DNA of 64,000 nucleotides from Octopus vulgaris (taxonomy: Eukaryota). Of the stretch, positions 4,648 through 59,240 are shown piece by piece (the first letter of the stretch is position 1; the number at the start of each line of letters is the position of its first letter). The stretch is from the NCBI GenBank assembly GCA_951406725.2, contig OX597823.1, positions 11,284,001-11,348,000 of the forward strand, given 5' to 3'. The translations under genes were made by a program, and so were the position numbers. The notes below the pieces were generated by a model that did no database searches, was not told the origin of the DNA, and saw only the letters and a program-made list of their open reading frames with translations.

Positions 4648-4880
4648 AGTTAATCCAAACAAGAAAACACAAAAAAAAACCCACAAAAAAACACAAAAAA
4701 AAACACAACAACGCGAGGACGTGGAACAAATAAAGTATTATTGGACGCTCAGGAAAGAAGGGAAGAAGGAGGGTTTAACGTTTCGAGCGGAGCTCTTCGT
4801 CGGAAACATAGGAGAAGGAAAGATCCCGAGAAGGGAAGACAGAGGGAAAAAATCGCCAGTGGTACTCACGAGGTCACATT
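4648..4880 (-). mobile_element. Small Penelope-like-type repeat (P2) carrying a hammerhead motif
   Basis: GC-richer insert between microsatellites; shares gtggaa...gtatta...ctcagga and the ribozyme motif with P1. Confidence 0.6.
4773..4807 (-). ncRNA. Minimal type-I hammerhead ribozyme-like motif (U4C core variant)
   Basis: Minus strand GTTT CCGACGA A GAGC tcc GCTC GAAAC GTT AAAC: stem I GTTT/AAAC, stem II GAGC/GCTC, GUU site. Confidence 0.65.
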
Positions 4881-5084
4881 TACCCACACATATGCACATA
4901 CACACATATGGTTGTGCGTGTGCGTGTGTGTGCATATATATATATCATTACTTAATGTCCTAGTTCCATAATGTTTTAGGTTGTGTGCTTTGGCATAGAT
5001 AGATAGATAAAGAGAGAGAGAAAGAGAGAGAGAGAGAGATAATAGTAGTTATAATTATGTTATTAATACATATGTAGGGCTCAG

Positions 5085-5352
5085 GTCTGGCAATAGCAGT
5101 AGGACTCATAATGCTGAAGAACCCGGTTTCCATGGCATTTTAGTAACTGAGATTACAACACACCCCACTGAATGGGATACAGATCCATTGCAGTGTTAAC
5201 ACCCACTCCCCACCACTATTGCTGGTACTCATTTTTAGCTGAGTGGACAGGAGCAATGTGAAATGAAGTGGTTTTGCTGAAGGCCACAATGCACCACCTA
5301 GTCCAGGGATCTTACGATTGTGAGTGCAATGCCCAAACCAGTAAGTCCTGCA
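5085..5352 (-). mobile_element. Old tRNA-derived SINE (family F)
   Basis: cacttcatttcacattgctcctgtccactcagct motif; related copies at about 20-125, 10910-11200, 33775-33978 and 41720-41850. Confidence 0.65.
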
Positions 5353-5444
5353 GCTTCATAGTATATGTAAAATATATATAAAAAGATATATTAATATATA
5401 TAAATATATCTTTACATAATATATACAAATAGTGTATATACAGA

Positions 5445-6038
5445 GGTGCAGGAGTGGCTGTGTGGTAAGTAGCTTGCTAACCAGCCACATGGTTCCGGGC
5501 ACAGTCCCACTGTGTGGCATCTTGGGCAAGTGTCTTCTGCTAAAGCCCCGGGCCGACCAATGCCTTGTGAGTGGATTTGGTAGACGGAAACTGAAAGAAG
5601 CCTGTCGTATATATATATATATCATCATCATCATCATCATCATCGTTTAGCGTCCACTTTCCATGCTAGCATGGGTTGGACAGTTCAACTGGGGTCTGGG
5701 AAGCCAGAAGGCTGCACCAGGCCCAGTCTGATCTGGCAATGTTTCTACGGCTGGATGCCCTTCCTAACGCCAACCACTCCATGAGTATATATATATATAT
5801 ATATATATATATATGTATGTGTTTGTGTTTGTGTGTCTGTGTTTGTCCCCCTAGCATTGCTTGACAACCGATGCTGGTGTGTTTACATCCCCCGTCACTT
5901 AGCGGTTCAGCAAAAGAGACCGATAGAATAAGTACTGGGCTTACAAAGAATAAGTCCCGGGGTCGATTTGCTCGACTAAAGGCGGTGCTCCAGCATGGCT
6001 GCAATCAAATGACTGAAACAAGTAAAAGAGTAAAAGAG
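5445..6038 (+). mobile_element. SINE family A with a nested family B insertion
   Basis: Full family A consensus interrupted within its central microsatellite. Confidence 0.92.
5622..5786 (-). mobile_element. Family B 3' end (probable RTE-type LINE 3'UTR or dependent SINE)
   Basis: ggcgttaggaagggcatccagc ... ccatgctagcatgg hairpin ... (GAT)n tail. Confidence 0.85.
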
Positions 6039-54798: not shown

Positions 54799-57475
54799 AG
54801 TACATATGGTTAGTACTTTATTTTATTGCCCCCTCTTGCCTGTGGAATTTGAACTTATACCATAAAGTACTGCAGTTGGCTTAATTGACCATAGTGTTTA
54901 CATCGAAATATGTGATGTTATTGCCTATGCATAAAAAAAAATTATTACTTCAGTAAATAATGAAAGAACAGTTTAATGTGCAGATACTAATTTACAAGCC
55001 AAGCTTTGGATCAATTACCAAATACATCGATAAATTTACTAATGAAGCATCCATGAGTTTGAAGTAACTATGAAGTTAGATTGTCAAATTATTGTAGTCA
55101 ATATATCACAGAATTATAACTGTCAATTTATTTGGATAAAAATATTAAAAGATTGTAAGTTATTTTAATATAAATTAATTTTTTGCTCAATTATGTTTAT
55201 TATTTCAATAATATAAAACAATTTTTATAAATAATAACTAAAAATTGAAAAAAAAACAGTCATTCATATTGCTTTGTTGTTATATGCTAGACAGACTCCA
55301 CGAAGTATAAGTTGTAGGTTCAATATCACTTTATGGCAAAAATAGCTTGTAAATTTTAGGTTGAAACATTCTGATTTGATATACTAAGTCTAAACGTGTA
55401 ACTAAGTTTAATAATAATTTACAACTAAATTAGAAGGAAATTGCCATTATGTGTTTTTTACTGTGAAGTAACTTATTTAAGAAAGTAAAGAAGAAACTAA
55501 ACATTGTAATATATTTCTGAAACCTTATTGCCTTTATTTTCATCCCATCTGTTTAGTTGAGGGAGCTATGATAATGAGGGAGCTATGATAATGAATATAT
55601 AGCTATAAATCTATTGGTAGTATTTGAGAAAAGAAATCACTCAGAGATGCTATCCACCTGAAAATCAATGGTTTAGTTAGTGTTAATATAATTAGTGTGT
55701 CCACATTTAACTATGGTTTATGCACACTAACTTAAATATATTAACCACATATGTAGACTAAAGTAACTATTGTTTTTCATGGCATCTCTAAGTTACTTAT
55801 CCTTTAAATAATTCTACTTTTCTATGCGAACCAATCTTGTAGACTTAATGATTCTCCTGTAACTACTTCAGCAAATTGGTTAAGTCTGTACTTCACTGAT
55901 GAGTTTATAATATTCAAACATACATGTAGTTATTTCCCTTACTTGATACACTATTTAAAATATTATTTAGTTATTAAATAAAATTATTTTTTCCTCATTG
56001 CTTAATTATTTCCAGCTTGAGTCAAAATTGTTCTGTCCATAAATTATTCCAAAGTAGATTAGATCTAAGCCACATTGATGCCATTTATTATTCAGAGACT
56101 GATGCCAAGTTATAATTTTCAGAGTTTTGTTAACTAAGTTGTTATCAACTAAATATTATATCCATTGTTAGTTTTATTTCTTTTAGGTTGTCAATACTTA
56201 ATGGTTATTTTTATAACAAATGTATTGATTGGAATTATAAAATATTTAACTCACTTTTCTAATTAAAAAATGTAATGAACCAATTTTTCACATGAATATT
56301 TCATAATAAAGACTTAAAAACCTTTTATACGTTTGGCCAAACAAGCTTTACAGATTCTAGATCTGTATTAGAGACATGATCAACAATTAAAAAAAGAAAA
56401 TCCTTTTAAAAATTCTGCAATCTATTTTTGTTGCAAATGGATCTTTCCATTTTTATAAACATCAAGTATAATTCGAGAGAAATGTTGCTGCTACTTTTAG
56501 TAGATGGAGTAACATGGGAAAAGTTTAATGACTGGTTAGTTGAATCAGTTTAAGGACTGGAAATCTAAAATATAATCAGATACTCTCTCATGTTTTTTAC
56601 AATGTAGGGCCACTCTAGAAATAGCAGCCAAATCTCTTTCAAATCACATCTACCATTTAAAATCTGAAGGAAGGAAACATTGGAATATTTGTTCTACATG
56701 CATTTGTGTTCAACAAAAATATTAGCAGCTAATCACAGCTGGAATGTTTTGTTATAGGTTTACCCTATCAGGGTTGAACTAAAAGACAACATCAGCAATT
56801 GAGGTTTTACAGCTGAAACTAAATTGTGTCATAGCTCTGTTTTATGTAATAACTAACTGCAAAATGGATTCTCGTGAGAGAAAATCAAGCAATGAACATA
56901 AGTAGTGGACTTCCCTTTTCTTATTATCTTGTAGATGTGTGTTTTTATGACAACTTCATGAATGTGTTGCCTTAGGCTAAATACATACCATGAGATTAGA
57001 TACCATATCATCTTCTCCAAATCAATATATGTGTGTATGTGTGTGTGTATATATATATATATATATGTAACCTATATTGGCTTCTAGCATCATATTTCTG
57101 ACAGTTGAGGTAGTCTGGAATTTACTGAATCATTGGCGATATTTACAGATGTCCTAAACATTTAGCTAGGTTTCTTTGATATCCTACATGGCTATATAGG
57201 ATTGTTGACTCAATAGGATTCGTGATAATGCATATCACATGTATTGTATATTTCATTTTAAATAGGCTCTGTGTTATAATAAAGAAGCTTTGATGTAAGC
57301 TCAGCCAATAATGTAAGTTATACTCTAGGCTTTATGATGGACATTATTTTTTGTTTTTGTTTTTTTTTACTGGGAAATGAAACATAGGCAACTTGGTAAA
57401 TTTTGTATATTGCTATGCAATTATTTTTAAAATCTCAAACAACATGACTCATTATATTGGGCCATATTTGATGTT

Positions 57476-57776
57476 CATCATCATCATCATCGTCGTTTAA
57501 CGTCCGTTCTCCATGCTAGCATGGGTTGGACGGTTCCACCGGGGTTCTGGGAAGCCAGAAGGCTGCACCAGGCTCCAGTCTAAATTTGGCAATGTTTCTA
57601 CAGCTGGATGCCCTTCCTAACGCCAACCACTCCGTGAGTGTAGTGGGTGCTTTTTACGTGCCACCTGCACAGGTGCCAGGCGGGGCTGGCAACGGCCATG
57701 GTCAGATTGGTGTATTTTATGTGCCACCGGCACGGAAGCCAGTCGAGGCGGTGCTGGCATCGGCCACGAGTCGGAT
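57476..57776 (-). mobile_element. Family B element
   Basis: 2 internal units. Confidence 0.88.
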
Positions 57777-59097
57777 AAAAAAAAAAAACATGTAATTTAT
57801 ATACAAAGATTTAAAGTAAATAACTACTAACATGAAATGAATCCTTCTATTTGATGACATAAAATATGAGAATTTGTTTTAGAAACCATCATTAGATGAA
57901 AATTAAATAAATAGTAATTTAAATTACTCTACCATATAGTTAACTCAATGATGAGGTCAGTTTACATGCCATTGTCACTTCTTACCATAAAGACATTAAA
58001 ATTGCTTATATAGTTTTTTTTTTTATTCTTTATAAAGTTGCAGTGAATTTAGATACAGAAATAATGTGTTGTTCAAATATATCTCACCTTAATTATTGGC
58101 TGTCATCATAGAGAGAAGCTCAGATCAAAACCAATTAGATATCAAAGAACTTTGTTGAAGTCATTTCTAAATTTGTTGATATGTTTATAAACCAAAATTT
58201 TGAACAGTAAAAACCGAATGAAATCTGATTTGTGTATCCAATGCTTCTGTTGACAATATTCTTCACTTAACTCTAATATTCAACACTAAGAATTTTCCAT
58301 ATTAAATGTTGTGTTCTGCTAGCAAAGCTACACACACATATAACTTGACATGGCAAATATTTGTGAAGAAATCATTATACTAAGGTTTCCTTCCATTGGC
58401 CAATCTCCACCATACAGCTGCATATATATATATATATGCTGAATGTGCAAGTTGGGAGTAAATTTTTTTGAGTAATACTCCTAGCAACCCATGCATACAA
58501 GGCTTCCTTCTCCTTGTCATTGATGCTTATCCAAGAAAAAAGCTTTTAACTTAAACTGATACAGTTTGGCTAAGCTGGAACAGATACTGGAAAATTTCTC
58601 ACAAGATTCTTTGACAGTTCTGCTGATCTGTTAACCCAGATTGGTACTTTCTTTTATGGACTCTGAAAGGGTGAGAGGCGAAATTTACTTTGTGGGATTT
58701 ACACTCTGAGTATAAAGAGTTTGAACAGATATTTATCCAATGCTCAGATGATTCAAACAGTTTTACTGAGTCACATATATATTATTATATAAACACAATA
58801 TTAGATACCTACATATTGAACTCATTTGTTTTCATATTTCATGTTGTTTACTGCTGGTGATGTCCTGTACCCATATATGCATGCATGTATATATATATAT
58901 ATATATATATATATATATATATATATATGTAGATATGTATATATATATGTATATATGTGAATATATGTATGTGCCTATATGTATATATATATGTACATAT
59001 ATGTATATATATATGTGCATATATGTATATATATATGTGTATATATGTATATATATATGTGTGTGTGTATATATGTATATATATATATATATATATA

Positions 59098-59240
59098 ACG
59101 GGAAGCTTTATGAAAATAAACAAAAGACGAAGTCAGGTGGAATACAAACAAACAATTGTATTAGTATGGCACTCAGGAATATAAATAAAACAAGTCTTTT
59201 ACGTTTCGAGCCTATGCTCTTCAACAGAAAGATACACAGA
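59098..59240 (-). mobile_element. Family P1 small element with hammerhead motif, embedded in (TA)n
   Basis: Longest P1 copy; (TA)n on both sides. Confidence 0.75.
59195..59232 (-). ncRNA. Minimal type-I hammerhead ribozyme-like motif (A6U core variant)
   Basis: TCTTT CTGTTGA A GAGC atag GCTC GAAAC GTA AAAGA. Confidence 0.62.

Follow-up and report, generated by a model that had tools for sequence, protein, structure and literature searches.

Hammerhead variants with a short stem III, found in association with Penelope-like elements (PLEs), were reportedly described by Lunse, Weinberg and Breaker in 2017 and are said to cleave as dimers. A consensus for the minimal hammerheads of PLEs was published by Cervera and de la Pena (2014; PMC4209133), in which a type I topology is combined with a short stem I, a stem II closed by G10.1-C11.1, an extra nucleotide that separates position 9 from 10.1 and a palindromic remnant of helix III. 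Many families of these motifs occur per genome, mostly as single truncated copies, and opposite-strand pairs are found 100-700 bp apart. The 56 representative rows in Fig. S3 of that study carry CUGANGA or a U3 variant only and none has U4C, A6U or G3-C8, which its descriptors excluded; no cephalopod is listed in it. Departures at the same core positions are known from rare single cases (natural U4C in a viroid, A6C in the phage Bcep176 and U3-A8; PMC3088659) and from laboratory mutants such as the engineered C3G/G8C swap, which has partial activity (PMC11167929, PMC9901934). Type I hammerheads are also carried by small non-coding repeats such as the non-LTR retrozymes (PMC7229834) and the Schistosoma Sm-alpha SINE-like elements. 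The role of hammerheads in PLEs is stated to be unclear (PMC8557442).

The window analysed here is a stretch of 64,000 nucleotides from Octopus vulgaris, in which four minimal hammerheads had been predicted earlier; all four were recovered at their predicted positions. Three of them lie on the minus strand; the prediction had named no strands. In a motif descriptor scan, site 1 (4773..4807, minus strand; core CCGACGA, a U4C change) was found to have a stem I and a stem II of 4 bp each, ACGU as the helix III remnant and U at H17, with the predicted cut between 4777 and 4776. Site 2 (16921..16966, minus strand) carries the canonical core CUGAAGA, a 5-bp stem I, a 6-bp stem II, ACGU and U at H17, the cut being predicted between 16926 and 16925. 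Site 3 (52403..52454, plus strand; core GUGAACA, a G3-C8 swap) has a 7-bp stem I, a 5-bp stem II, AAUAUU as helix III, U at H17 and a predicted cut after 52447, while site 4 (59195..59232, minus strand; core CUGUUGA, an A6U change) has a 5-bp stem I, a 4-bp stem II, ACGU, A at H17 and a predicted cut between 59200 and 59199. A fifth intact hammerhead with the core GUGAACA, the inverted twin of site 3, lies at 52334..52383 on the minus strand. The type I topology with a short stem I, the stem II closed by G10.1-C11.1 and a single extra purine ahead of stem II are present in 5/5 intact motifs, as is a nearly absent palindromic helix III (ACGU in three, AAUAUU in two) followed by a UH site. The shared architecture of the original prediction thus stands; it agrees point for point with the published consensus of PLE minimal hammerheads and is not new. 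As in the published genomes, there are several families, mostly as single truncated copies, and opposite-strand pairs. The canonical CUGANGA core is carried by one of the five (site 2), the others being U4C, G3-C8 (twice) and A6U, and these are variants of the PLE minimal hammerhead rather than plain members.

The rate of such motifs in the window is far above that in dinucleotide-shuffled DNA, the comparison proposed with the original prediction. A descriptor written after the sites had been seen gave 5 matches against a mean of 0.067 and a maximum of 1 in 60 local dinucleotide shuffles of the window. In a second chance test, plain mismatches to CUGANGA were counted over 100 shuffles: with up to two mismatches and both stems of at least 4 bp, 5 real matches compare with a mean of 0.24 (5 reached in 0/100 shuffles); with both stems of at least 3 bp, 6 compare with a mean of 0.96 (6 reached in 0/100); and with up to one mismatch and stems of at least 3 bp, 3 compare with a mean of 0.14 (3 reached in 1/100). 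The reversed window gave no match in any of the four mismatch and stem settings, and pattern scans of viral contigs gave none. No hammerhead or tRNA is among the Rfam matches listed for the window (150 of 247), and the complete match lists of sites 2 and 3 contain no hammerhead family and, for site 2, no tRNA. The additional match behind the count of 6, at 39597, has a 3-bp stem I, two core mismatches and no extra purine; it is probably due to chance and was rejected.

Each motif is embedded in a short element. Site 3 and its twin form a head-to-head inverted repeat (52251..52537) of 92% identity, whose centre, near 52394, is 16 nt upstream of either core. A 59-bp tail (52192..52250, minus strand) is attached to the left arm only, and the element is bounded by a 13-bp target-site duplication (left copy 52179..52191, plus strand; right copy 52537-52549). 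Over some 141 aligned columns, 9 substitutions and one indel separate the arms. Stem II has A-U in one arm and G-C in the other, which was not counted as covariation since two CpG deaminations suffice. At site 2, the left arm of a 165-bp inverted repeat (16871..17033, minus strand) comprises (AAT)n, a leader, the hammerhead and a tail, and the inverted right arm (17134..17298, plus strand) is about 90% identical, forming a sixth motif copy in which CUGAAGA is kept and GAAACG is lost. The spacer between these arms (17034..17133, minus strand) resembles a decayed tRNA-like head reading towards the hammerhead, with an A box at about 17109-17120 and a B box at about 17067-17075 (motif match, at most one mismatch). 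This head is weak and present as a single copy in the window; ARAGORN, which finds no genes over the whole window, calls it only at the 70% threshold. No target duplication longer than 7 bp was found at site 2, where a one-sided tail is not clear.

The original prediction regarded the four motifs as unrelated families, which does not hold for sites 1 and 4. These have stem II in common and their 3' tails align with a score of 48, against a maximum of 43 in 2,000 shuffles, while no tail alignment above shuffles was obtained in the other five of the six site pairs; the sites therefore represent three lineages. The site 1 element (4650..4882, minus strand, ends approximate) consists of a pyrimidine-rich leader of about 75 nt, the hammerhead and a U-rich tail that runs into (TA)n at 4583-4646. 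The site 4 element (59098..59240, minus strand, 143 bp) starts 13 nt upstream of the core and has (TA)n on both sides. Two tail-only copies of the site 4 family were identified on the plus strand, one (4498..4590) containing an internal 31-bp duplication and set tail-to-tail to site 1 with a single (TA)n tract between them, the other (229..288) within (TA)n. An inverted arm is absent at sites 1 and 4. Neptune PLEs are described as biased towards microsatellites (PMC8557442), and sites 1 and 4 together with both tail-only copies abut (TA)n. The 4-bp stem II and GAAACGU of sites 1 and 4 are found nearly unchanged in the Neptune hammerhead of Acropora digitifera (PMC4209133) and in its relatives (L001-L122), which were fetched by pattern from metagenomes and whose flanks do not align with the elements of the window beyond about 30-38 nt. 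In one of these relatives (L122), a GIY-YIG remnant that scores above the cut-off (Pfam PF01541, E 3.8e-05) lies 98 nt upstream of the shared segment, and the family of this relative corresponds to the row for the Neptune element of Acropora digitifera in the 2014 supplement.

The elements probably derive from the pseudo-LTRs (pLTRs) of endonuclease-bearing PLEs of three lineages, either as 5'-truncated end-pieces or as short non-autonomous derivatives, and the minimal type I hammerhead is carried by each. A master element would be transcribed and, going by the literature, its RT/GIY-YIG protein would nick the target and copy the RNA from its 3' tail. As the sequence shows, copying usually halts a short way upstream of the hammerhead and sometimes folds back to give an inverted arm, the outcome being stubs of 60-290 bp that lie in (TA)n tracts or are enclosed by target duplications. 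An inverted 5'-truncated arm with a tail of 30-40 bp at one end only is the described insertion pattern of endonuclease-positive PLEs; such arms are present at sites 2 and 3, and the one-sided tail of 59 bp next to the 13-bp duplication at site 3 exceeds the described length. For this class it is established that a hammerhead devoid of helix III could cut only when two copies are joined into a dimer through the palindrome (ACGU or AAUAUU), as in tandem masters; the solitary or opposite-strand copies here, which have no partner in cis, are probably inert. A tblastn search of the window with peptides of eight loci gave no credible remnant of a PLE ORF, the best match (E 0.006 over 25 residues) being off the GIY-YIG frame, and the PLE origin therefore rests on the architecture and on relatives from other hosts. 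The original prediction spoke of retrozyme- or Penelope-derived elements, and it is the Penelope part that agrees with the architecture and the insertion pattern. That the elements are non-LTR retrozymes, made of tandem 170-400-nt units with a circular RNA, or that site 2 is a SINE of the Schistosoma Sm-alpha type with a Pol III head, is improbable. The A-box/B-box head upstream of the site 2 hammerhead does resemble the Pol III-like head of Sm-alpha elements, and a 2026 preprint derives retrozymes from PLE pLTRs, making the classes related; against this, a tandem 170-400-nt unit was found at no site, the motifs are minimal instead of the canonical type I with a 6-bp stem I and loop contacts that the definition of retrozymes requires, and the weak head could be a separate insertion in (AAT)n.

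The variant cores could in principle have arisen by decay of canonical CUGANGA cores after insertion, as is suggested by the right arm of site 2, which has lost GAAACG, and by site 1, a single copy with a single change. For the site 4 family this is largely refuted, since CUGUUGA is the majority core in each of four runs under four organism labels, with 4,078-9,238 contigs to a run; the count is based on contigs, which drop rare variants. These counts support the abundance claimed in the original prediction, and the family consensuses are not all canonical; had they all been so, the variants would have been reduced to decay. In 4/4 runs, every other letter stays below 3% of depth throughout 59203-59240, while 15 rows of other letters are listed at 59128-59202, including A/U at H17 at 20-35%. 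The depth at the core bin of site 4 is 54-64% of the peak, and given this the family may include a clipped minority with a canonical core. Earlier core variants were rare single cases or laboratory mutants, whereas A6U is here the majority state in thousands of contigs; no report of a fixed A6U was found in the literature searched, which did not cover the main variant paper (Lunse 2017). At site 3, G3-C8 probably predates the insertion, because two diverged arms both carry GUGAACA, a compensatory double change hard to reconcile with decay; gene conversion between the arms could also account for it. The CCGACGA core of site 1 is found in one subfamily of the Neptune relatives, with C4 in 32/33 copies of one tail type against 1/35 of two other tail types, and is a subfamily marker of a GIY-YIG-bearing PLE in the DNA of other animals, which again speaks against decay. 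CUGUUGA occurs in 0/78 copies of this Neptune-like family (L001-L122), and protein searches with the antisense frame across site 1, intended to read U4 or C4 from translated copies, gave no matches. Decay as the general explanation is thus very unlikely. The variant cores appear mostly to be inherited, as the original prediction supposed, and would already have been carried by the transposing RNAs: the contig majority establishes this for A6U, the two arms argue for it for G3-C8, and for U4C it is likely from precedent only. The families would have spread regardless, as insertion does not need fast cleavage.

In an anole PLE, C3G/G8C partly restores cleavage, catalytic mutants insert normally in vitro and uncut RNA is the dominant insertion substrate (PMC11167929); in pairwise mutagenesis, mutants of the CUGA region other than the C3/G8 swap all have low activity (PMC9901934). 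By analogy, G3-C8 probably still cuts at a reduced rate; for A6U and U4C, cleavage is probably slow or absent, the published mutagenesis arguing against catalysis by these two. Cofolding gave an active dimer as the minimum-energy structure for none of the five motifs, and the energies of dimers with one active site (-8 to -21 kcal/mol) are uninformative on activity. One tentative possibility is that the variants are active or deliberately attenuated ribozymes, with A6U and U4C rescued by the dimer, the extra purine or a protein chaperone. The viroid U4C retains enough activity in vivo, the A6C variant of a phage has a cleavage rate below 0.1 per min (PMC3088659) and the remaining core positions are intact in the site 4 family; slower cutting might conceivably favour the long uncut RNA that serves as the insertion template, in line with its dominance in vitro. 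Against this possibility, minimal hammerheads with a canonical core already cut very slowly, also in dimeric form.

A rather doubtful reading, compatible with a PLE origin, is that the motif is retained chiefly as an RNA signal without catalytic function, so that changes which kill cleavage can become fixed in the core while the fold stays; such a signal might, with similar reserve, be a binding site for the PLE protein or a point at which reverse transcription halts or folds back. In one run (X13), depth over the 40-nt hammerhead is about 1,350 times that over the tail of the site 4 subfamily, hundreds of contigs among the rows listed exit the alignment at 59192-59195 and 59230-59231 in all four runs, and the flanks beyond these points are mixed (agreement 0.54-0.65); many subfamilies therefore have the motif, not the flanks, in common. 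Contigs with diverged flanks align only through the motif, however, and its conservation is partly ascertained in this way. In predicted folding, U4, G5, U6 and U7 of site 4 can pair with A14, A15.1, C and G to form a plain bulged hairpin of -9.2 kcal/mol, against -6.8 kcal/mol for the hammerhead fold. The start of the insertion lies 13-16 nt upstream of the core at both site 3 and site 4, and cleavage is dispensable in vitro, both of which suit a signal. On the other hand, the only double change observed is G3-C8, the very swap by which catalysis is preserved. G5, G8 or its partner, A9, G12-A15.1, U16.1 and H17 have likewise been kept without exception, which resembles selection for an active fold.

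Neither the architecture as such nor the genomic stubs are out of the ordinary, and the G3-C8 swap and U4C were already known. Standard CUGANGA descriptors would overlook 4/5 intact motifs in the window, and published counts of genomic hammerheads are therefore probably too low. A direct natural test of the role of the hammerhead is offered by families that multiplied with a core change from which crippled cleavage would be expected, and the maintenance of such a change in at least one very abundant family hints at a role of the shape beyond cutting. A bolder and rather unlikely proposal is that a large PLE clade in this animal and its relatives has multiplied for millions of years with a CUGUUGA core unable to cut, the motif being kept more strictly than its flanks. 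If this were true, the PLE 'ribozyme' would act chiefly as a signal for protein recognition or reverse transcription, and the families with A6U, U4C and G3-C8 would constitute a natural mutant series for the function of PLE hammerheads.

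A structure-aware scan of the window recovered all four hammerhead motifs of the original prediction at 4773-4807 (site 1, minus strand; core CCGACGA, U4C), 16921-16966 (site 2, minus; CUGAAGA), 52403-52454 (site 3, plus; GUGAACA, G3-C8) and 59195-59232 (site 4, minus; CUGUUGA, A6U), and a fifth at 52334-52383 (minus). In all five, stem I (4-7 bp) precedes a core of 7 nt; a single additional purine leads on to stem II (4-6 bp, opening pair G-C), and GAAA, a palindrome (ACGU in three, AAUAUU in two) and the cleavage-site dinucleotide UH follow. The first scan descriptor, composed after the sites had been seen, gave 5 matches against 0.067 per shuffle (60 shuffles). 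With a plainer descriptor the motif rate was again well above that of shuffled DNA, with 5 matches in the window against 0.24 per shuffle, a number reached in 0/100 shuffles; other settings gave 6 against 0.96 and 6 against 0.37 (0/100 each), the strictest core setting 3 against 0.14 (3 reached in 1/100 shuffles), and the reversed window zero matches. The window (G+C 25-43%) is rich in microsatellites and short dispersed repeats, and no convincing gene was found within its 64 kb. It has the character of animal genomic DNA, and its repeats appear similar to those of octopus genomes. It also carries a perfect hairpin at 12229-12302 (33-bp arms, 8-nt loop), possibly a small inverted-repeat element; a decayed reverse-transcriptase fragment at 8045-8443 (minus; Pfam RVT_1, E 0.004, below cut-off), probably from a LINE; dispersed repeats of one family that contain tandem units of 62-67 bp, at 29818-29948, 32538-32704, 40542-40831, 49447-49632 and 50453-50571; and a further short interspersed repeat, present in many copies along its whole length.

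The common architecture of these motifs is already known, since PMC4209133 describes for Penelope-like elements (PLEs) a minimal hammerhead with an extra nucleotide between 9 and 10.1, a conserved G10.1-C11.1 and a palindromic 15.2-16.2, along with a U3-A8 core variant and many families per genome, mostly as single truncated copies, with pairs on opposite strands. The signature described for endonuclease-positive PLEs consists of 5'-truncated arms in inverted orientation, a tail at one end only and a bias towards microsatellites (PMC8557442). In the window, site 4 measures 143 bp, begins 13 nt upstream of the core and has (TA)n at both sides, and the tail of site 1 leads into the (TA)n tract at 4583-4646, where a tail of the site 4 family faces it; two tail-only copies of that family occupy 229-288 and 4498-4590. 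At site 3, two arms form a head-to-head inverted repeat (52251-52537, 92%) that turns 16 nt upstream of the core; only one of them has a tail, of 59 bp, and a 13-bp duplication is present (52179-52191 and 52537-52549). At site 2, an inverted repeat of ~165 bp flanks a 100-bp spacer; the hammerhead of its second arm has decayed, and no duplication above 7 bp was found. Between the arms, at 17034-17133 (minus), a decayed tRNA-like A-box/B-box head lies immediately 5' of (AAT)n and the hammerhead; it may belong to a non-autonomous PLE derivative driven by Pol III, or may be a SINE that inserted separately. A search of the window for remnants of a PLE ORF found none. A tandem 170-400-nt unit is absent at the sites, which are therefore not retrozymes as in PMC7229834 and the preprint 10.64898/2026.07.22.740005, and the proposed retrozyme derivation is not supported.

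The sites had been described as unrelated-looking repeats of four families. Aligned in full, sites 1 and 4 reach a score of 82, the best of 500 shuffles reaching 45, and their tails alone 48 against a best of 43 in 2,000 shuffles; the similarity of the remaining five of six pairs is no better than chance; the sites thus form three lineages.

Whether the A6U core of site 4 is inherited or decayed was examined in sequencing runs, of which 24 matched and 20 cover part of 52050-59250. Four runs (X2, X5, X6 and X13; organism labels A, B, C and E), one of which may be the window's own source, were analysed with all contigs, aligned to 59098-59240 at 80% likeness (5,976, 9,238, 6,133 and 4,078 contigs, respectively), differences being recorded from 3%. 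Fifteen rows carry another letter, all at 59128-59202, including an A-to-U change at the predicted cut-site nucleotide H17 in 20-35% of depth. No other letter reaches 3% in 59203-59240, which takes in GAAA as well as stem II, the extra purine and the core in full. Depth over the hammerhead in X13 is ~1,350 times that over the tail of the site 4 subfamily, summed contig depth not being a copy number, and among the loose ends listed, where contigs leave the alignment, hundreds pass into mixed flanks either side of the motif in every run, such contigs entering the count solely through the motif match. This combination shows that A6U is the majority state across a large group of subfamilies and that the core is inherited. 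Contigs lose rare variants. Core-bin depth is 54-64% of peak, near to though slightly below the mirror bin across the motif (X13: 0.64 vs 0.71), so that clipped contigs with a different core could exist as a minority. At the loose ends at 59230-59231, longer site 4 forms extend upstream into a pyrimidine-rich leader like the one at site 1; by depth they outnumber the short form, whose start lies 13 nt upstream of the core.

At site 3, GUGAACA occurs in both arms, although 9 substitutions and a 2-base indel separate them. Most simply, the compensatory G3-C8 double change would be older than the insertion, being common to arms made at insertion; alternatively, conversion between the arms after insertion would explain it. 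Within 52334-52454, stem II has A-U in one arm and G-C in the other, compatible with compensatory change or two CpG deaminations.

For site 1, protein searches aimed at U4C inheritance in its own family found nothing. Relatives were sought by a pattern with G5, G8, A9, stem II and GAAACGU fixed and positions 3, 4, 6 and 7 free, which matched at least 120 metagenome loci (38 of 64 parts scanned) and 6 in prokaryote assemblies; these at least 126 loci reduced to at least 109 distinct ones, of which at least 78 with a common tail motif were kept and 31 dropped. Among the 78 matches listed, CCGACGA and CTGACGA each occur in 32 and CUGUUGA in none. C4 is present in 32/33 copies of tail type A against 1/35 of types B and C (among the matches listed; Fisher p 6e-17, showing linkage and not independent events, as the copies are related), and in 4 of the 10 listed copies without a tail type. 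Loci L001-L120 represent a Neptune-like PLE family with a U4 and a C4 subfamily that differ in their tails, and many copies carry a short inverted core-region copy just upstream of the hammerhead. L122 (CBDDTI010000485.1), a C4 copy filed in a bacterial MAG, is a Neptune-like PLE fragment whose GIY-YIG remnant ends 98 nt upstream of its CCGACGA hammerhead, and is probably animal host DNA inside the assembly. In the PMC4209133 supplement, the Neptune row of Acropora digitifera is a match to this family, and the hosts are therefore probably corals. In these relatives, as distinct from site 1's own family, U4C is thus seen to be inheritable within an amplifying PLE subfamily.

As regards activity, U4C lowers cleavage yet supports a viroid, and a natural A6C cleaves at < 0.1 per min (PMC3088659). 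In predicted folding, U4, G5, U6 and U7 of site 4 can instead pair with the AACG strand, and the resulting bulged hairpin lies 2.4 kcal/mol lower than the hammerhead fold. In pairwise mutagenesis, CUGA-region mutants other than the G3-C8 swap had low activity (PMC9901934). From the published mutants and this hairpin, G3-C8 would be expected to retain weak activity, and A6U and U4C to cut slowly or not at all. PLE minimal hammerheads do not cleave as monomers and cleave little as dimers (PMC4209133). In an anole PLE, the G3-C8 swap gave partial cleavage recovery, catalytic mutants left insertion in vitro unaffected, and RNA-seq reads ending at the cut site were absent (PMC11167929). Opposite-strand copies are unable to dimerise within one transcript, and the copies in the window are therefore probably inert.

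No literature report was found of A6U, of CCGACGA, GUGAACA or CUGUUGA, or of natural G3-C8 in PLE families; Lunse et al. 2017, outside this comparison and reportedly the largest survey of such hammerhead variants, could remove the novelty. That survey is cited in PMC6765202. A search on cephalopod or tRNA-headed PLE hammerheads likewise gave no report of these cores; none appears in the available portions of PMC6155905, PMC11014351, PMC13282606 and PMC8495972, and A6U, U4C and G3-C8 occur in 0/56 rows of Fig. S3 of PMC4209133. For Octopus vulgaris, 31 recently active Penelope-like families are described in PMC13282606, the available portion of which does not mention hammerheads. The original prediction thus holds as to the motifs it observed and in part as to their interpretation. 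Within a motif type and an insertion type of known kind, the core variant A6U is demonstrably inherited and, as it appears, previously unreported, while the other two variants in the window are probably inherited.
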